Positions 2,207 to 22,787 of a stretch of DNA of 64,000 bases are shown one piece after another. The notes under the pieces were generated by a model. It made no database searches. It saw nothing but the letters and a program-made list of their open reading frames with translations, and was not told the origin of the DNA. The position numbers and the translations under genes were made by a program. Positions within the stretch are counted from its first letter, which is position 1. Each line of letters opens with the position of its first letter. Source of the stretch: Candidatus Poribacteria bacterium (lineage in GTDB: Bacteria > Poribacteria > WGA-4E > PCPOR2b); contig OZ244587.1 of the NCBI GenBank assembly GCA_965218095.1, positions 480,001-544,000 on the forward strand, in the 5' to 3' direction.

Positions 2207-2965
2207 ATGAGGACACCAATCATTGCCGGTAATTGGAAACTCAACAAAACCATCGGTGAATCCGTAGATCTCGTCATCGCACTGCGAACTCTGATAGTTG
2301 ATGTCACCAATGTTGAAATTATTGTTGCTCCGGTTTTCACAGCACTCTCTGCAGTTGCACAGGTGCTGGAAGGCAGCAATATTTGTCTTGCCGCACAGGA
2401 TGTGTTCTGGGAAGAGAGTGGCGCATTCACAGGCGAAGTGTCGCCGACGATGCTCAAGGATGCTGGATGTGATTACGTGATCATCGGTCACTCGGAACGC
2501 CGGCAATATTTCGGTGAAACAAACGAGAGCGTTAACCGCAAAGTGAAGGCAGCACACGCGCACGGCTTGACGCCGATTATCTGCGTTGGTGAACAGCTTG
2601 CAGACCGGGAGGCTGGCAGAACCGAATCGGTAGTCGAGTACCACGTCATTAACGGGCTCGCGGAGTTATCTGCCGATCAGATCTTGTCCACCGTCATCGC
2701 TTATGAACCTGTCTGGGCGATCGGTACTGGCAAAACTGCGACCCCAAATCAAGCGCAAGAAGTCCATGCGTTCATCAGATCGCTGTTATCAAAAATTTGT
2801 ACGGCTGATGTCGCATCACAGGTTCGGATTCAGTATGGCGGGAGCGTCAAGCCGGACAACGCTGACGAGTTGATGGCGCAGCCGGATGTAGATGGCGCGT
2901 TGGTCGGTGGGGCAAGCCTGGAATCGGAATTGTTTGCACAAATTGTGAAGGCTGTGGAAAGATAG
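2207..2965 (+). CDS. tpiA: Triosephosphate isomerase
   Basis: IAGNWK, IGHSERR, AYEPVWAIGTG, YGGSV and LVGGAS motifs. Confidence 0.98.
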   Translation: MRTPIIAGNWKLNKTIGESVDLVIALRTLIVDVTNVEIIVAPVFTALSAVAQVLEGSNICLAAQDVFWEESGAFTGEVSPTMLKDAGCDYVIIGHSERRQYFGETNESVNRKVKAAHAHGLTPIICVGEQLADREAGRTESVVEYHVINGLAELSADQILSTVIAYEPVWAIGTGKTATPNQAQEVHAFIRSLLSKICTADVASQVRIQYGGSVKPDNADELMAQPDVDGALVGGASLESELFAQIVKAVER

Positions 2966-3162
2966 CTAGTTGAAGAAAGGGGTTGCGCCCCAATCGAAGA
3001 TCAGGGTTGGAAACGAGAGATTTTAGCAATCGTAACTTTGAGTACGAAAGTCGTGGTCTGGCGGTCCGAATGTGCTCGGGGTCGCTTTTCAGGATCCAAT
3101 CAAGAATCGAGAACACTCGAAAAAATAGCACACCCTATCAACAAGTAAAGTGAGGAACTATC

Positions 3163-4664: not shown

Positions 4665-5484
4665 GGTTCTGTTGACATTTCAAGGGAGCCATATAAGAGT
4701 GGAGACAAAGCTGAGAAATCCCAAATAACGGACAGCTAGCTTCTCAAACCGAGAGAAGATACGACGATACCATTTTATCTTGTTGATGAAACATTCAACC
4801 TGATGTCTCTCTTTGTATAAGCGTTTGTCATACGTTCTTTGGTCAACACGATGACTTTTTGGCGGTATCACCGCAATCGCTCCATTCGCCTCAATAACCG
4901 CGATAAAAGCGTCCGAATCGTACCCCTTGTCTCCAATCACATATTCACTGTTATATCCGATTATCAACCCTTCCGCCTCAGCTATGTCATGTCTCTGACC
5001 GGGGGTCAGATGAATTCTTAGCGGATTGCCTAGTCCGTCAACTGTGATGTGATTTTTTGTACTGAAACCGCCCCGAGACCGACCTAATGCTTGGTTTTCA
5101 GTTCCCCCCTTTTTTTTAAGGCGCCCGCCGCAGACGGGTGAGCGCGGCAGATGGTACTGTCCACAATAAGCGACTCGATATCGGGGTCAGAGGCGAAGTG
5201 GGGGTGCATCTGTGTGAAGATACCTTTGTCGCACCATCGAGCAAAACGCTTGTAGCGGGTGTTCCATTTGCCATAGGTGTCTGGTAGAAGTCTCCATTGA
5301 GCGCCGCTACGAGTCACCCACAGGACGGCTTCGACGAAGCGGCGTGTAGCAGCTTCGTCGCCAACATAGATGGTGGGACAGCTTAGAAGAAACTGGTATA
5401 TCTTATTCCATTGTTCATCAGGTAAGGTTATTGGCGTCATTCTTCTATTATGCCACAACCTTATACTCAAATATCAACAGAACC
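4665..5484 (-). mobile_element. IS5-family (IS427-group-like) insertion sequence, apparently intact
   Basis: 16-bp TIRs and a TA duplication. orfA (5084-5470) and orfB (4680-~5105) join at an A8G6 slippery site. Motifs LRSGAQWR-like, DST, GDKGYD, ERHQVECFINKIK. Confidence 0.92.
4680..5440 (-). CDS. IS5-family transposase (programmed -1 frameshift)
   Basis: After CTTAAAAAAAAGGGGGG the shifted frame reads ENQALGRSRGGFSTKNHITVDGLGNPL..., continuous with ORF 4680-4967. Confidence 0.85.
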
Positions 5485-16156: not shown

Positions 16157-16435
16157 CGCCGCTTCCGCTGGCCTCAGACGTCATAAGCACATCGTTATAC
16201 GAATTATTTTGACAATGTTAAATTACCGCGTAAACCCTGATTTCATCAGAGTTTGAAGTCAAACAACCGAACTTGAGAAGCCGCGTCATAACTGGATCTG
16301 CTGTCTAACTTAACATTCGCGAAAGCATTAAGAAGACCTACGATTGCTGAATTGGTAAAACAATCTGAGTCAAGAAGCGTCAAGTGGACGAGGAATTGAT
16401 TAACCGAGGTGCTTTCTCTTGCCGGGAGGTATTTG

Positions 16436-16831
16436 ATGAAAAAGGTGTTTACTTTTCGCATTGGCGATGCCACAATTGGACAATTCAAGGGGATGCTCGA
16501 AGAATCAGGTATCGCTTGTGTCGTCCGAAATGAACTGCTCGTGACGGCAATCGGAGAGATTCCGGTTTCGGAATGCTATCCCGAACTCTGGGTTGTAAAC
16601 GACAACGATTATGCGTCAGCCCAAGCTTCAATTGATGAATGGAAGAAGATGGAAAGCGATGCACACCACTCATGGCCGTGTCCAAACTACGGACAGCATA
16701 TTGAGAAGCAATTTACCGCATGTTGGAAATGTGGGACGGAGGCGTTGCGTTTGACGCCGGATAGTGACGCCGATGATCTGGAAGATCGAATCATTGAGGC
16801 GGTGCGTAATCTGCCAACCCGTTTGCATTGA
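16436..16831 (+). CDS. DUF2007 (putative signal-transducing) protein with C-terminal zinc ribbon
   Basis: LEESGIACVVRNE, GEIP..ECYPELWV and WPCPN...FTACWKCG. RBS ggaggt. Confidence 0.8.
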   Translation: MKKVFTFRIGDATIGQFKGMLEESGIACVVRNELLVTAIGEIPVSECYPELWVVNDNDYASAQASIDEWKKMESDAHHSWPCPNYGQHIEKQFTACWKCGTEALRLTPDSDADDLEDRIIEAVRNLPTRLH

Positions 16832-16967
16832 AAATTAACGTCCGGCGATTTTGCCGTTGATTCGCTCTGTATGGTTGTGGTAGGATACGAAAAAGAGTTA
16901 GGCGACTGTTCAGTGCTATATTGACAATGGCAGGAATAAGATCACCATCAAAGTATTAGGAAAAAAG

Positions 16968-17921
16968 ATGTCCACCAATATCCTACAACACTATGTCCAA
17001 AAGATGAAACACTTGCGGATAGACAGAGCACACAAAGATGCTCCTCACAAACCGCTCCTCCTGTTAGCAATCATCGAACTGATCGAGCAAGGACAGATTC
17101 GCGAAAATAGGATTTACTTCTCCCCAGCCTTGGCAGAGACTGTCATGAAATATTGGGTAGAGGTAACAGATCGGAGATTCAATATTGCCATGCCATTTTT
17201 TCACTTAAAAAGTGATAAATTTTGGCATCTCCATCCAAACCCTAGATATAAAAAAGTATTGGAGGGTGCTCGTCAAATAAGAAGCATTTCTGGTATCCAA
17301 GAAGTTATTGCGTATGCTAGTTTGGATGATGACTTTTTTGTTTTACTCACTGATGCCGATAATCGAGAGATAATCCGTCAAACCCTTATTCGCACCTATT
17401 TCTCAAATTTCCAGCAGGCGATTGAAAGTCTCATTGCAGAAAGACAACAGATTGGAGAGTACGGACAGTTACTAATCCACGAAGTGGAACACCCCTTTTC
17501 ATTTCAGAGACCGACAGCACCAACCTCAAAAGAAGAACCAATTCGTAGTGCAGGTTTCCGTAAAGCAATCATGCGATTATACAAGTACACCTGCGCTATC
17601 TGTCGGTTGTGTATTATTACAACGGATGGAGAAAGTGCGACTGAGGCTGCTCATATCATCCCATTTTGTATTTCGCAGAATGACGATGTACGGAATGGGA
17701 TTTCTCTTTGCAAATTGCACCATTGGGCTTTTGATACAGGGTTAATCTCCCTGAACACGACCTATCGGGTTATTGTTTCACGGCTTATAGTCGAGCAGGG
17801 CCCAATGGAGTGGAGACTAACCAAACTGCGTGGTAAATCCATACTGTTACCCGAACACGATCAACTTTACCCGGCCCAAGATGCGTTGGATTGGCATCGT
17901 GAGAAAATGCTCAGACGGTAA
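16968..17921 (+). CDS. SBD-HNH endonuclease (phosphorothioated-DNA-binding restriction enzyme family)
   Basis: N-terminal APHKPLLLLA and PFFHLKSDKFWHL (SBD-like). C-terminal CAIC...EAAHIIP...NGISLCKLHHWAFD (HNH). Confidence 0.85.
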   Translation: MSTNILQHYVQKMKHLRIDRAHKDAPHKPLLLLAIIELIEQGQIRENRIYFSPALAETVMKYWVEVTDRRFNIAMPFFHLKSDKFWHLHPNPRYKKVLEGARQIRSISGIQEVIAYASLDDDFFVLLTDADNREIIRQTLIRTYFSNFQQAIESLIAERQQIGEYGQLLIHEVEHPFSFQRPTAPTSKEEPIRSAGFRKAIMRLYKYTCAICRLCIITTDGESATEAAHIIPFCISQNDDVRNGISLCKLHHWAFDTGLISLNTTYRVIVSRLIVEQGPMEWRLTKLRGKSILLPEHDQLYPAQDALDWHREKMLRR

Positions 17922-17937
17922 CTTAACGTGGTGCCTA

Positions 17938-19992
17938 TTACTCCTCTGAATTTTTTATTTTCCAGAAGTAACGTTTTTCTACATTGGTGCCTCCTTCAAT
18001 CGGGTCATACACCAAATGATACGCATGTGAAACGTGTGGACTTAACATCTCAAAGTTCTGTTTATCGAGTTCCGTATCCGTTGACAATACAACCACCTGA
18101 TGACTGGCGTATGGAAAGTAATGCTCAATCAGGCGGTGTTGATGGTCACTGTCCAAGCGACCGAGTGGTGTATCAATAATCATTGGCAGTGGACGGCCGG
18201 ACGTTTTCGCCAACCCCCACAGCATCGAGATAGCGTAGATCTGCTTTTCGCCTGCCGACAGCTCTTCCTTGGGAATCAATCGGTCTTGCTGGTCATAAAG
18301 GGTGACAGCAAAGGTTTGCGGATCAATCTTGATTCGCTTCACCAGACCGTATTTGCGGCACAGTTGGTTGAAGCAATCCACAACGGCGTCCTTTAACGCT
18401 TCGACTTTCGCATGCGTTAATTGACAGGTATACGCATCCAACACCGATTGGACATCCGCCACCAACTGAGCGCGTCGCAGATCGGCTTGTCTGTCCCGCT
18501 GTGATTCGCTCAATTGGCTCAACCGCCGTTCAACCTCATCGCGACGATACATCAGCGACTGAATATTTGCCGCCTCATCTTGTTCCTGTTTCTGCAATGC
18601 ACCAAACTGTTGATGAAGATTCTTAAGCTCAAGCATTAGTGGTTGTAAAACCTCATCGGACGGTATCCGTCCCAAAGCGGTTTCAACCCGTTGTAACTGG
18701 CGGTTGCTTTCCTCTAACTTCCGATTCAGTTTATGAAATCCCTCTGGAATCTCGGAGAGGCACGAATCAATCCAACTCAGCAACTGTTGAGATTCGGGTG
18801 GCGAAAGAGAGTGAATCCGGTACACATCTTTGAGTGCTTCGGGTGGCTGAAGCTGTTTTGTGAGCAGGTTGGCAATCCTGCTGTGGATGGAATCACGAAG
18901 GGATGGCTTGGGTGGAAGCCCCAGCACCGATTCCCAAAATTCATTCCCTTCTAATTGTGCAAGCAGTTCTCGATTTCTCTCCTTCAGTGCTTTATGTGCT
19001 GAATCCCACGCCTCAATTTCTGCCTCCTTAATCAATCGGGTTCGCAATTGCTCACACAGTGAAGCCGCCAACGCAAACGGAAGTAGCCCGCCGCACGCAT
19101 CCTGAATCTGTTTCTCCAAATCAGATATGCTCTGATTCAATTTCGCCTGCTCTGTTTTCAGCTTTTCACGCTGGCGAGCGTAACCACCTCCCTCTTTTGC
19201 GATCTGTTCCTCTTGATGGGTAATCTGTGTTTCAATCTCGTCAATTTGCGCGTCAAGAACCGCTATCTTCTCAGTCGCACAACTTAATTGCGTTTCAAAG
19301 TCTCGTAGTTCTTTTTCAGCGGAATTGATAGCTTGGGAGAGTTGGTCGGGGTCAGTATCCTTCTTCGACCGATTCAGGTAAATCTTGAGGTCAGAATGTA
19401 GCCGTTCAACGAGGTCAACACCAAGCAAAGATTTAATCGAATCGGCAAGGAAGGTATGGCTAGAGGCATCATCCGCCAACCCTTGAATCTTTTCACCATC
19501 AAAGAAGAATAGCTGAGAGAGTCCAATGGGAATCAATTCATTGAGAAAGTCCTGCCAATGCTCGGCTTCAAAATCAGAGAGCGGTTCGTTGTTCTTGTGG
19601 ATAATCAGCGATTCCTTGACCAGTTCTCTGATGCTTTGACGAATCTCCCATCGTCGCTCTACATAATAGTGGTCTTTTTCCCCACTGTGGACATGTTCAA
19701 ATCCGAGCGCAATAGAGGCCTGTTTCGGCTGAAGTAAAGTCACTTGGCTATGATGAATGGTTGAGGCGAGGTATTCATGATACGCATTCCGACTGATACG
19801 GTTGCCCAATGAGCGGGAGCCGTACAGGCAGAGACGCACGGCTTCGAGTATGGTTGTCTTGCCCGTTCCATTTTTGCCACCAATTAGGATGACAGGACGA
19901 CGTTTGTTGTATTTGATTCGCGGCGTCAGAGAAAATGTCTGCTCGCCACAAAAGAGTCCAAAATCCTTGAGTGTGAGTTGGTGGAAGATCAT
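17938..19992 (-). CDS. dndD: DNA sulfur modification protein DndD
   Basis: Walker A GGKNGTGKTT, LFFFDGEKI, coiled coil, LSAGEKQI, IIDTPLGRLDS, YFPYASHQV and LSTDTE. Confidence 0.95.
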   Translation of the reverse strand: MIFHQLTLKDFGLFCGEQTFSLTPRIKYNKRRPVILIGGKNGTGKTTILEAVRLCLYGSRSLGNRISRNAYHEYLASTIHHSQVTLLQPKQASIALGFEHVHSGEKDHYYVERRWEIRQSIRELVKESLIIHKNNEPLSDFEAEHWQDFLNELIPIGLSQLFFFDGEKIQGLADDASSHTFLADSIKSLLGVDLVERLHSDLKIYLNRSKKDTDPDQLSQAINSAEKELRDFETQLSCATEKIAVLDAQIDEIETQITHQEEQIAKEGGGYARQREKLKTEQAKLNQSISDLEKQIQDACGGLLPFALAASLCEQLRTRLIKEAEIEAWDSAHKALKERNRELLAQLEGNEFWESVLGLPPKPSLRDSIHSRIANLLTKQLQPPEALKDVYRIHSLSPPESQQLLSWIDSCLSEIPEGFHKLNRKLEESNRQLQRVETALGRIPSDEVLQPLMLELKNLHQQFGALQKQEQDEAANIQSLMYRRDEVERRLSQLSESQRDRQADLRRAQLVADVQSVLDAYTCQLTHAKVEALKDAVVDCFNQLCRKYGLVKRIKIDPQTFAVTLYDQQDRLIPKEELSAGEKQIYAISMLWGLAKTSGRPLPMIIDTPLGRLDSDHQHRLIEHYFPYASHQVVVLSTDTELDKQNFEMLSPHVSHAYHLVYDPIEGGTNVEKRYFWKIKNSEE

Positions 19993-21440
19993 CAGTTCGT
20001 ATTCTCCACACTGCGCGGAACTTCACTTTTCTCCCGTATCATTTCAAGATCAGCAAGCACGGTTTCTTCTGAACGCCAATCTTCGTGAAAAATTGCATTG
20101 ATTCGTTCATAAATCGCCGCCCGCCGACTCATGCCGTGGAACTGCCGCTCAGTGTCGAGCAACTTTGCCACAAGCGCAACAGGAATTCCTGTGTCATTAC
20201 ATAGCGATTCTAAAATCGCTTTATCAGACGCTGTGAATGTCCCAAGGTCATCTGTTGTCCAGTCGAGCCCTTCGCCGACGACCTCCCGGTAGATTTCCGG
20301 CACTGAATCTTCCCAATCTTGACGCTCTGTCTGCCAGATTTTACGAATCTCCTCAAGTTCTGCCGGAGTGATTAACTCAATGTTTGGCTCGGGGCCTTCC
20401 TGACGAACCTGCTGTTGAGTTTCCAGAAGCATTCGTAGAAGTTGTTTACAAAATTCCATTTTATAGGGGCCGCGAACCAACTGCCCATTTTTATCACTAA
20501 CAAATCCACCACGACGGCGGTGTTCTCGCAATTTCGGTTTGTTTTCCGGCTCCTGCGTCGAGGCGAGGAAGTCCCGAAACTCAAGTAGCGGCATCATCCA
20601 ATCCTCACCGTTGTCAATCATTGCTTCCATTGACTTGTCTTTCGCGACAACAGTACACGTCCAGCACCCAAATCGGCTGTTACCGCAAGAAGGTGTCGTC
20701 TCATCAACGACTAACGGACACTCCCCAGCATTTGCGTTGCGATATAGTGCAAATAACTGCTTGTTGTCATTTCCCCATGGCGAAGGGACTTGAAACAGGT
20801 AAATCCACACATCATTGAGACCGAAATCAACAATCGGCGTATATACAAAAGCGTTGGGTAGTGACGTATGGCGTGAAAGTAGAGAGTCCTTGATTTTGTG
20901 CAGGTTCAACACCTGATCGCGTGTTGTGCTCTCTCCCTTGCGAACACCGAGAATTAGAATGACTTCGCCATGGTCAGCCACTTTGTCAAGTATGAATTGA
21001 TTGGCTGGCTGAATCTTCATCCGGTCGGTACACCAACGAAATTTCGTGTACGGAGCCGGATAACCCTTGCCGATGAGGTTCACCCAAAATGTCTGGTCAA
21101 TTTTCGGTTTCACGACGTGGGTCCGAAACGGCATTCCAGTTTCCTTTGCCTTCTGCTCAATGCGCCCTAACGTGCTAGTGATGTAATCCACAATCACAGG
21201 CGTTTCGACCAGCGTGTCAGACGTAATGACGTAAACCGGCTTTTGGCGTTGCTCAGGTGGAAGTTCTTCGAGCGCGTACCAGATTAGTTGAAGTGCTGTC
21301 GTAGAATCTTTACCACCACTGTAGCCAACGACCCACGGACGGGAATCGCCGAGGTACACCTGTTGAATTTCTTGGTGAATTTCTGATGTTGTTCGGGTAT
21401 CAAAAATCGAATACGCTTTTTCGTCGGTTACTTTGGCCAT
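19992..21440 (-). CDS. dndC: DNA phosphorothioation sulfurtransferase DndC
   Basis: PWVVGYSGGKDST, DTLVETP, FWVNLIGKGYPAP, RWCTDRMKI and ECPLVVD..TPSCGNSRFGCWTCTVV motifs. Confidence 0.97.
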   Translation of the reverse strand: MAKVTDEKAYSIFDTRTTSEIHQEIQQVYLGDSRPWVVGYSGGKDSTTALQLIWYALEELPPEQRQKPVYVITSDTLVETPVIVDYITSTLGRIEQKAKETGMPFRTHVVKPKIDQTFWVNLIGKGYPAPYTKFRWCTDRMKIQPANQFILDKVADHGEVILILGVRKGESTTRDQVLNLHKIKDSLLSRHTSLPNAFVYTPIVDFGLNDVWIYLFQVPSPWGNDNKQLFALYRNANAGECPLVVDETTPSCGNSRFGCWTCTVVAKDKSMEAMIDNGEDWMMPLLEFRDFLASTQEPENKPKLREHRRRGGFVSDKNGQLVRGPYKMEFCKQLLRMLLETQQQVRQEGPEPNIELITPAELEEIRKIWQTERQDWEDSVPEIYREVVGEGLDWTTDDLGTFTASDKAILESLCNDTGIPVALVAKLLDTERQFHGMSRRAAIYERINAIFHEDWRSEETVLADLEMIREKSEVPRSVENTN

Positions 21441-21473
21441 TCAATAAACCTCCTTGGTGTTGATTCTCATTTC

Positions 21474-21502
21474 AGTATAGCAAAAAACAAAGAAGAGTTC
21501 AA
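21474..21502 (-). promoter_or_regulatory. Sigma70 promoter for dndCD
   Basis: TTGAAC-N17-TATACT with extended TG, about 34 bp upstream of the ATG. RBS aaggagg. Confidence 0.6.
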
Positions 21503-22003
21503 GAAAATTCATACCTCTGTATCTCTGCACCAATATAGAGATGCCAAAAGATGGGTATCGCACGGTGTCGAAATGGGCTCGCCGCAACAATCGCTTTGAA
21601 ACCGCCAATCAGGTCGGTTTCATCTCTCAAAATCTGAGCCTCACGCTTTTCAACGCCGGGTTTTTCAAAACGGGCTTGAAAATCTCCGTCAGATGGGTTG
21701 CCATGGGTATTGGATTCACTTGTTTGGGGTGATATTTTCCTTATCATAATACCTCCTTGAGGTTGTTCGGATAAAGCCTTGATTGTGCGAGGATTCCTTC
21801 ACAACAGCGGATTCAGAAATCGAGTTGAAAACAATCGAAAACATTCCCAAAATCCCGCCCCAAATAGCAAATTTTATCCCATACAGATAATTGGATTGAA
21901 ATTGAGATGACACCTGGTCCCACCAGCGAAACGATTGCCATAACAGTAGATAATGTTCATGCAACGACTGAAGAATTCCGACAGAAAGGAGTTTATATTA
22001 TTA

Positions 22004-22787
22004 GGTTCTGTTGACATTTCATCGTAACCAGATAATCGCAGCAACGAAACTCAGAAACCCCAAATAGCGACCCGCCAACTTATCAAAACAACTGAAGATA
22101 CGCCTATAGTGCTTGATTTTGTTGATGAAGCATTCAACCCGATGTCTCTCTCGGTACAGATGCGTATCATAGTCTCGTGACTCACGGCGGTTGATACGGG
22201 GACGAATCACTGGCTCTGCACCCATACGGGTTATCAACTGCACCAATGAATCCGCGTCATACGCTGAGTCAGCTATCACATACTCACTGCTATACCCCTC
22301 CACACAAGTCATGGCGTGGCGTTGTCCAGCCGTCAGCGCAAAACGTAATGGATTGCCTAAGCCATCAACCGTGATGTGAATTTTGGTTGAAAATCCACCC
22401 GCACTACGTCCGAGTGCCTGTGAGGCTTGACCGCCACTTGTTTTCAAAGCCCCTGCAGCACAGGGGTGAGCGCGGCAGATGGTACTGTCACCATATCTGG
22501 GTCGTTGACAAAGTGTTGATGCAGCCGTTGGAAGATGCCTTTATCGCACCAGCGAGCGAATCGTTTATAGACGCTGTTCCAACTGCCGTACTCTTTTGGT
22601 AGGAGTCGCCATTGACTACCACTACGAGTTATCCAAAGCACTGCTTGGACAAAACGTTTTAAGTTCGCTTGCTGTCCGGTGTAGACATCGGAACAGGTTT
22701 GCAGGAATGCTGCTATTTTTGACCATTGATTATCGGATAAGGTAAGTGTTGACATATCGTTATTATGCCATAAATGTCAACACGTCC
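22004..22787 (-). mobile_element. IS5-family element, degenerate, with the same TIR family as 4665
   Basis: GGTTCTGTTGACATTT ... AAATGTCAACACGTCC with TA flanks. orfA (22444-22755) and orfB (22019-22447) carry small deletions; orfA lacks the in-frame DST motif. Confidence 0.88.

Follow-up and report, generated by a model that had tools for sequence, protein, structure and literature searches.

Gene content of the locus

We analyzed a 64,000-nt stretch of the genome of a Candidatus Poribacteria bacterium (GenBank assembly GCA_965218095.1, contig OZ244587.1, positions 480,001 to 544,000; hereafter the window), in which a gene for a predicted phosphorothioate (PT)-dependent nuclease, made of a sulfur-binding domain (SBD) and an HNH domain, lies convergent with the PT-writing genes dndC and dndD. 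The genome is a single contig of 6.35 Mb, and three long open reading frames (ORFs) fill the locus at 16968-21502. Throughout, W marks window coordinates, L numbers denote the individual loci compared, and G numbers denote Poribacteria genomes. The central features of the locus are:

16968-17921, plus strand: SBD-HNH nuclease gene, 317 amino acids (aa); SBD at about residues 6-144, HNH at about residues 209-263
17922-17937, no strand: 16-nt spacer between the convergent stop codons, holding the junction of two homology tracts
17938-19992, minus strand: dndD, ABC/SMC-like ATPase, 684 aa, full length
19992-21440, minus strand: dndC, PP-loop sulfurtransferase, 482 aa, full length

DndD scored 564 bits against TIGR03185 (cut-off 246; PADLOC DndD, E = 2e-226) and DndC 585 bits against TIGR03183 (cut-off 290; PADLOC DndC, E = 1e-204). 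The dndC stop and the dndD start overlap by 1 nt, this DndC is the sole one in the genome, and the DndD is 82% identical to that of L022, a locus that bears dndE. A sequence-only reading of this DNA had placed the end of the nuclease gene 16 nt from the dndD stop on the opposite strand, and the ORFs are indeed located there.

That reading overlooked the absence of dndE. The gene is missing from the locus, where the 16 nt beyond dndD leave no room for it, and searches of the whole 6.35-Mb genome with PF08870, TIGR03184 and a Poribacteria DndE protein as queries found none. The PF08870 search is valid in this phylum because it was positive in 44 of 176 Poribacteria genomes. Neither a DndE-like ORF nor a conserved small ORF was found in the window. 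The sequence-only reading had also stated that the usual Dnd partners are absent; this is borne out for PbeA (a protein query found nothing in the genome, and the window has no Pbe match) and extends to DndB, which was not found in the genome, while a search for the DndH family gave no match in the genome but was likewise silent in control genomes. A 267-aa ORF that follows dndD in L010 and L012 was considered as a DndE replacement and rejected as a DndE analogue, because it carries an HNH-like motif and is also present in a nuclease-only locus, L072. DndD and DndE have been described as an obligate pair, the module being non-functional otherwise, and a housekeeping IscS is able to replace DndA (Rakesh 2024, PMC10853773). 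DndCD devoid of DndE is most likely unable to write PT.

The nuclease as a predicted PT reader

Residues 6-144 of the nuclease align with SBDHga, a PT-binding domain of solved structure (PDB 8h0l, E = 6.7e-20), and residues 209-263 correspond to Pfam HNH_2 (E = 2.3e-12), with a weak match to the TagI HNH domain over residues 182-269. No SRA domain was found in the protein, and only about 55 residues separate the SBD from the HNH domain. The sulfur cavity of SBDHga is formed by H25, K26, L75, P76 and H79 (PMC10602919), to which H27, K28, M75, P76 and H79 of the window protein align. P76 and H79, together with H229, N243, C248 and H252, are invariant across 44 orthologues; positions 27-28 vary (HK, NK or HQ) in loci with and without dnd alike, and a search for a substitution in the nuclease peculiar to dnd-bearing loci found none. 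Precomputed annotation of the orthologues lists PF26340, and the score of the window protein against NF045808 ("phosphorothioated DNA-binding restriction endonuclease", of type "exception") was 135 bits, under the cut-off of 180. The motifs named in the sequence-only reading (APHKPLLLL, PFFHL and a complete HNH) are all present in the translation. Its description of MPFFHL as non-canonical has to be dropped, since (L/M)PF(F/Y)HL is the usual form among 150 representative homologues; in ScoMcrA, the Y164M substitution was reported to strengthen PT binding (Liu et al., PMC6224610). These features suggest that the SBD-HNH protein reads PT DNA and acts as a PT-dependent nuclease.

The ratio of nonsynonymous to synonymous substitution rates (dN/dS) of the nuclease is about 0.18 both with and without dnd. 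For the window copy, dN/dS against its nearest stand-alone relatives is 0.28-0.35, compared with 0.13-0.17 among those relatives, and it carries four private changes at conserved SBD columns (G23K, F59V, G93R and E95K; other sequences have 0-16). Tandem SBD-HNH pairs were seen in L006, L010, L012 and L002 (also in G111, G119, G127, G133, G138 and G143), with copies about 50-60% identical that differ at cavity positions 27 and 75 (NK/L versus HK/M).

The protein resembles the two-domain enzymes SprMcrA and EcoWI in having an N-terminal SBD with the H-K...P..H cavity, a C-terminal HNH_2, a length of about 300 aa, and a single gene in most genomes. Identity to characterized proteins (SprMcrA, EcoWI, Hga) is about 30-40% or lower, and Hga has a PD-(D/E)XK nuclease domain whereas the window protein has HNH. 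ScoMcrA (SBD-SRA-HNH) is a PT reader reported to restrict incoming dnd clusters (PMC6224610), and the exclusion of dndE described below would be its natural counterpart; unlike ScoMcrA, the window protein has no SRA or head domain, and it gives no match to ScoMcrA at E ≤ 1, whereas the second SBD-HNH protein of the genome does.

Mutual exclusion of the nuclease and dndE

Among the 176 Poribacteria genomes surveyed, the nuclease protein was matched in 129 (E ≤ 1e-10), its orthologue (best E ≤ 1e-60) was counted by hand in 94, and DndC was present at 68% identity or more in 62. The orthologue occurs without DndC in 70 of the 94 genomes and together with it in 24, and in 21 of these (window included) the two genes lie at most 10 kb apart on one contig. 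The sequence-only reading had proposed looking for the arrangement in related genomes; with 21 of 176 showing it, the adjacency extends beyond this assembly and is therefore not an assembly scar.

We compared the window and 20 further nuclease/dnd loci with 40 dnd loci without the nuclease and with 20 of the approximately 70 nuclease-only loci. Left out of the counts were G101 (DndC at contig ends), the second G094 contigs, and G030 and G143 (DndC 55% and 42% identical). Full-length dndE is present in none of the 21 nuclease-bearing dnd loci (fragments remain in L002, L011 and L019) and in each of the 39 nuclease-free dnd loci that could be evaluated (a contig end truncates L035), in which it encodes 120-128 aa directly after dndD (PF08870, E about 1e-27; PADLOC DndE). 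A pbeC homologue is found in 0 of 21 nuclease-bearing loci versus 27 of 40 without the nuclease. In most nuclease-free dnd loci there is a convergent pbeA-pbeC operon that includes small ORFs and, in some cases, a DndB-like gene; others have an SNF2/ParB/MORC-like set in place of pbe. No DndC, DndD or DndE was found in any of the 20 nuclease-only loci examined. In 20 of the 21 loci the nuclease gene is convergent with dndC-dndD, and in L013 it runs in the same direction. In 7 of the 21, dndD is absent, truncated or frameshifted, versus 1 of 39 loci without the nuclease.

The two allele types are interleaved on the DndC tree, where well-supported branches force at least eight changes, and the DndD tree is alike. 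Each of the eight independent contrasts on the DndC tree pairs presence of the nuclease with absence of dndE (sign test, p = 0.0078). Genome-wide, the nuclease occurs in only 5 of 42 genomes with a near-full DndE (hand count), while about 26 co-occurrences would be expected under independence (152 genomes of three families). These five exceptions have a divergent DndC (G030 and G143), an altered or divergent nuclease (G072 and G152), or a fragmented, contaminated assembly of 910 contigs (G094). Dnd-type PT writing (dndCDE) and PT reading (the nuclease) most likely behave as mutually exclusive alleles of one locus. The sequence-only reading took an active Dnd writer to be incompatible with a PT reader, and to this premise the exclusion data are a strikingly good fit.

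Two homology tracts meet in a defence hotspot

The two homology tracts of the locus meet in the spacer. Homology to nuclease-only loci of the same family spans about W16756-17936 (blastn), and in L063 W16756-17935 is matched continuously, from the upstream stretch into the nuclease gene. Homology to the dndCDE loci L022, L024 and L045 starts at W17937. The left tract begins with the following element:

16756-16899, plus strand: conserved stretch 5' of the SBD-HNH gene, left edge of the nuclease cassette (blastn)

In L045, the first 115 nt of this left element sit 7.3 kb beyond dndE, so that the same two edges enclose dndE and six defence-type genes in L045 (7.6 kb) or the 1.1-kb nuclease cassette in the window. 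Neither a tRNA nor an Rfam family was found at the hotspot edges, including 16756-16899, and comparison of 16700-21800 with the listed contigs of four public runs yielded no piece that bridges the junction at 17921-17938. In family f4, GFO/IDH/MocA-family oxidoreductase genes on one side and a conserved gene pair on the other delimit a single syntenic site that occurs in three states: dndCDE with pbe, the nuclease together with dndC (dndD present or not), and the nuclease by itself. The hotspot is best read as a polymorphic Poribacteria defence site.

Other genes, 0.65 to 7 kb in total, separate dndD from the nuclease in most relatives, and in some loci these include SMODS/SLATT_4, AlbA_2 or DUF3644 genes. 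An SMODS and SLATT_4 pair, resembling a cyclic oligonucleotide-based antiphage signaling system (CBASS), together with an AlbA_2/Schlafen gene, was seen between dndD and the nuclease or beside the nuclease in L005 (10770-13354), L007, L009, L015, L019, L021 and L079, and AlbA_2 recurs beside both SBD-HNH types of this phylum. A 429-aa DndB-family (ParB-like) gene, which is the last gene of the pbe operon in complete loci, immediately precedes the nuclease gene, in the same orientation, in L004 (10175-11464), L062 (8989-10242), L070 (6268-7515) and L072 (9115-10371).

Proposed replacement of dndE by a nuclease cassette

In the reading that we favor, at a probability of about 0.6, a PT-dependent type IV restriction gene replaced dndE and the restriction partner in the defence hotspot, and the leftover writer was disabled. 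The SBD-HNH protein would be a stand-alone type IV enzyme, its N-terminal SBD binding PT DNA and its HNH domain cutting, and the PT that it reads would be that written by Poribacteria Dnd systems. The hotspot of the relatives would represent the complete form, dndC-dndD-dndE with a convergent or downstream restriction module (pbeA/pbeC or SNF2/ParB/MORC-like); in the window, a nuclease cassette of about 1.1 kb would have been swapped in for the segment from dndE through the restriction module. This would have left dndC and dndD without the DNA-scanning partner DndE, PT writing would most likely have been lost, and this loss would let the PT reader live beside dndCD. The exclusion pattern would then be driven by conflict between reader and writer, which matches the reported restriction of incoming dnd clusters by SBD nucleases (PMC6224610, PMC10602919). 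The reading also agrees with mutated dnd clusters as one of the explanations given for rare co-occurrences (Lutz 2020, PMC7461809) and with the obligate pairing of DndD and DndE (Rakesh 2024, PMC10853773).

We count a second PT locus of the same genome as a second case for the replacement. It lies outside the window at about 4.12 Mb (G000:C1:4120364-4131569; L166, 6364-17569; PADLOC SspD model) and contains, in order, sspB, a broken sspC, sspD, a 633-aa HATPase gene, a second SBD-HNH gene and an AlbA_2 gene, sspC being broken by an in-frame TGA and a frameshift.

If the replacement is correct, about 60 Poribacteria loci form a natural experiment, in which a Dnd-type PT writer and the present PT reader cannot share a genome. 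Resolution of the conflict through dndE loss every time would support DndE as indispensable for writing, and also the view that the SBD-HNH clade actively reads the local PT motif. Furthermore, defence-system callers that score "Dnd" from DndC and DndD would mis-score such loci. The sequence-only reading had offered three mechanisms (tagging of DNA by an induced DndCD for destruction by the nuclease, a nuclease that reads a foreign PT context, and antisense-coupled mutual exclusion), all of which presuppose a DndCD that writes PT; this common footing is lost with dndE missing in the window and in all 21 nuclease-bearing loci. An inactive dndCD, which it had listed as an outcome that would speak against it, is now the likeliest state, yet purifying selection on dndC and dndD keeps part of its idea alive.

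Several observations weigh against the replacement. A mere relic would be expected to decay, so the constraint on dndC and dndD is at odds with it: the median pairwise dN/dS of DndC is 0.082 when both loci carry the nuclease versus 0.084 when both lack it, and that of DndD is 0.153 versus 0.174. The dndD deletion has the same junction in L004 and L007, yet the dN/dS of dndC in this pair is 0.046 at a synonymous divergence (dS) of 0.50; similarly, L010 and L012 have a common junction and a dndD dN/dS of 0.154 at dS 0.45. Contigs of sponge metatranscriptome libraries contain nearly identical pieces of dndC, dndD and the nuclease, a weak sign of expression as DNA carry-over is possible. The excess of broken dndD is significant by Fisher's test with kinship ignored (p = 0.0019) but not on independent contrasts (median p = 0.5). 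The essentiality of DndE reportedly comes from work on Streptomyces lividans and Salmonella only, i.e. on other organisms. In genus g18 (L192-L205), sspB-sspC-sspD are preceded co-directionally by an SBD-HNH gene of the second type, with no interruption in any of the four genes in 13 of 14 loci; coexistence of a reader with a seemingly complete Ssp writer is therefore possible. Lastly, DndC stands beside SBD-HNH without DndD or DndE in 3 of 80 SBD-HNH loci of other phyla, which were found from a 10-sequence alignment. As for the constraint, the dndC-nuclease segments of L004 and L007 are 84% identical while the flanking housekeeping genes are about 95% identical, so the alleles are either older than the species split or imported by recombination. 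Since the allele types are interleaved on the trees, dndC and dndD could be renewed through recombination with complete alleles, which would mimic constraint.

Alternative explanations

Because dndC and dndD are under purifying selection, DndC (with or without DndD) and the SBD-HNH protein may instead form a working DndE-independent module, in which the nuclease would bind or nick DNA and a sulfur mark would be written, maintained or signaled by the PP-loop enzyme, or the nuclease would be an SspE-like PT-sensing effector. We consider this unlikely, although it deserves attention before the other rivals. The selection persists on both genes after dndE loss and on dndC also after dndD loss, the orientation is kept in 20 of 21 loci, DndC neighbors SBD-HNH without DndD or DndE in Saprospiraceae, Dyadobacter and Chloroherpetonaceae (the L115 operon), and a parallel pair of sspD and the second SBD-HNH persists without sspB or sspC. 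Rakesh 2024 (PMC10853773) also proposes SBD-bearing HNH genes as Dnd restriction partners. On the other hand, about 70 of the 94 genomes carry the nuclease by itself, 7 of the 21 loci have lost dndD or hold a broken copy, and the interleaved alleles, with their at least eight changes, leave open that recombination imitates the constraint. The nuclease is, moreover, never found beside dndE, an avoidance for which a cooperative system would have no cause. DndC is not known to act on DNA without DndD and DndE. An alignment-based prediction of a DndC/SBD-HNH complex gave a score of 0.00, which speaks neither for nor against binding. Overall, we give a DndE-independent function of DndC, with or without DndD, beside the nuclease a low probability. 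More doubtful is the general form of the idea, that a PP-loop enzyme (DndC, or SspD in the parallel loci) and an SBD-HNH protein make up a self-standing two-gene PT-related module that outlives, under purifying selection, the loss of DndD/DndE or SspB/SspC, with the sulfur-binding and nicking domains of the nuclease taking over DNA targeting or the enzyme controlling the nuclease; if it were true, the window locus would be a working DndE-independent system rather than a disarmed one.

The three remaining explanations are less probable again. The nuclease could be PT-independent or inactive and its position beside dndCD a result of defence-island crowding, in line with its NF045808 score under the cut-off, the raised dN/dS of the window copy (0.28-0.35 against 0.13-0.17 among its nearest relatives), the SMODS/SLATT_4, AlbA_2, DUF3644 and other HNH genes in the hotspot of relatives, and the low activity irrespective of PT that was reported for Bsp48385I, which adjoins a dnd cluster (Lutz 2020, PMC7461809). 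We judge this improbable: the cavity residues P76 and H79 and the HNH residues do not vary among 44 orthologues, the dN/dS of the nuclease is about 0.18 in both contexts, and an exclusion of dndE as exact as that in 8 of 8 contrasts would not be expected from crowding alone. Equally hard to sustain, and by our estimate slightly more so, is the view that writer and reader are both active with different specificities, DndCD being aided by an unrecognized DndE substitute and the nuclease reading foreign PT contexts. Lutz 2020 (PMC7461809) offers it as one explanation, SBDs are reported to vary in specificity (PMC10602919, PMC6224610), and the window-type nuclease coexists with uninterrupted sspC and sspD in many genomes, e.g. 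G043, so that it would need to tolerate Ssp-type PT if those systems are active. However, this view predicts coexistence with complete dndCDE, which was seen in 0 of 21 loci, the window holds no DndE-like or conserved small ORF, and the closest solved SBD, that of Hga, is reported to be promiscuous (PMC10602919). Hardly credible is an antisense switch, in which convergent transcription over the 16-nt gap would make expression of dndCD and of the nuclease mutually exclusive; the stops are 16 nt apart, no terminator-like site was found in the spacer between them, and convergence is kept in 20 of 21 loci, but the tight overlap is not conserved given the 0.65 to 7 kb between dndD and the nuclease in most relatives, L013 is co-directional, and the loss of dndE is left unexplained.

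Relation to known systems

The complete allele of the relatives is exactly of the DndCDE-PbeABCD type (the CxC-ABC ATPase system), with dndC-dndD-dndE followed by convergent pbeA-pbeC and small ORFs, with or without a DndB-like gene, of which the window retains dndC and dndD only. An SBD-bearing HNH nuclease beside Dnd modification genes is also a feature of the wHTH(SBD)+SAD+HNH Dnd loci of Rakesh, Aravind and Krishnan 2024, reported from 698 taxa as candidate restriction partners (PMC10853773). Those loci are centered on a DndD-DndE core and carry SAD/SRA, whereas the window has neither DndE nor SAD and its nuclease excludes dndE. SspABCD-SspE is an earlier example of a nuclease whose action depends on PT in the DNA of its own host, and the second SBD-HNH of Poribacteria takes up operon positions beside sspBCD; SspE, however, has a different architecture (PMC9646914), and the window locus is of the Dnd type with an incomplete writer.

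The object described here is thus an SBD-HNH type IV enzyme with a truncated Dnd module, both of known kinds, and earlier publications describe SBD-bearing HNH genes in Dnd loci. Lutz 2020 (PMC7461809) lists co-occurrences of SBD nucleases and dnd, with "dnd cluster mutated" as one explanation, and Rakesh 2024 (PMC10853773) reports such neighborhoods as well, so that the word "undescribed" used in the sequence-only reading was too strong. In the literature searched on this topic and on Poribacteria, we found nothing on gene-level dndE exclusion or allelic replacement at one hotspot, and nothing on DndE absent beside DndD in a complete genome or on constraint of an orphan dndC. The replacement of dndE, if correct, would reconcile "rarely coupled" (Lutz 2020) with "strong neighbourhood association" (Rakesh 2024), as adjacency may mean replacement rather than partnership.

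SBD-HNH genes at Ssp loci and in other phyla

The second SBD-HNH protein of the genome is 295 aa long, carries the canonical YPFW motif, and matches PDB 5zmm (E = 4e-12) and 7cc9 (E = 7e-11) and the SBDs of ScoMcrA and SprMcrA. This type is carried by 81 genomes, and its locus was compared in 37. Where it follows sspD, all of sspB, sspC and sspD are uninterrupted in only 2 of 23 loci (L178 and L187), and the nuclease gene persists in loci without sspB or sspC. The g18 cluster looks like an Ssp system with SBD-HNH in the place of SspE, and no description of such a cluster was found in the literature searched. Restriction by Hga was reported as 10-fold for Ssp-type single-strand PT versus 1000-fold (PMC10602919), and the coexistence in g18 is consistent with this much weaker restriction of Ssp-type PT. 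The constraint on orphan dndC and the g18 SBD-HNH/sspBCD operons are the parts that might lead to something new. The three loci of other phyla with DndC beside SBD-HNH are:

L115, 5799-10981, Chloroherpetonaceae: DndC and SBD-HNH in an overlapping five-gene operon, three genes of no recognized family
L153, 8554-10957, Saprospiraceae: DndC beside SBD-HNH, then PDC-M23A/B
L140, 3610-5983, Dyadobacter: DndC (frameshifted) beside SBD-HNH

Sequences flanking the locus

The remaining features lie to either side of the three long ORFs:

16409-16831: DUF2007-like ORF, its 3' end overlapped by the conserved stretch 16756-16899
21441-21964, minus strand: dndC upstream region with two 82-aa ORFs, 21499-21747 and 21716-21964
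22003-22782, minus strand: IS5-family insertion sequence, about 560 nt upstream of dndC; ends approximate, from the inverted repeat

The two 82-aa ORFs have no match in Pfam, PADLOC or NCBIfam, and protein conservation of them is absent in the other loci compared. Promoter-like and terminator-like sites in the region are no more frequent than in shuffled sequence. Short nucleotide matches to the dndC upstream regions of L022, L024 and L045 were found at 21646-21754. L022 itself contains a duplicated 5' fragment of dndC (2920-3087; 60 codons, 65% identical) located 2 kb upstream of the intact dndC and before an HATPase gene. The transposase of the IS5-family copy near dndC is encoded in two ORFs, 22019-22447 and 22444-22755 (NF033580 IS5; DDE_Tnp_1, DUF4096), and a second IS5-family copy lies in the window at 4686-5440, the transposases of both copies being about 62% identical.

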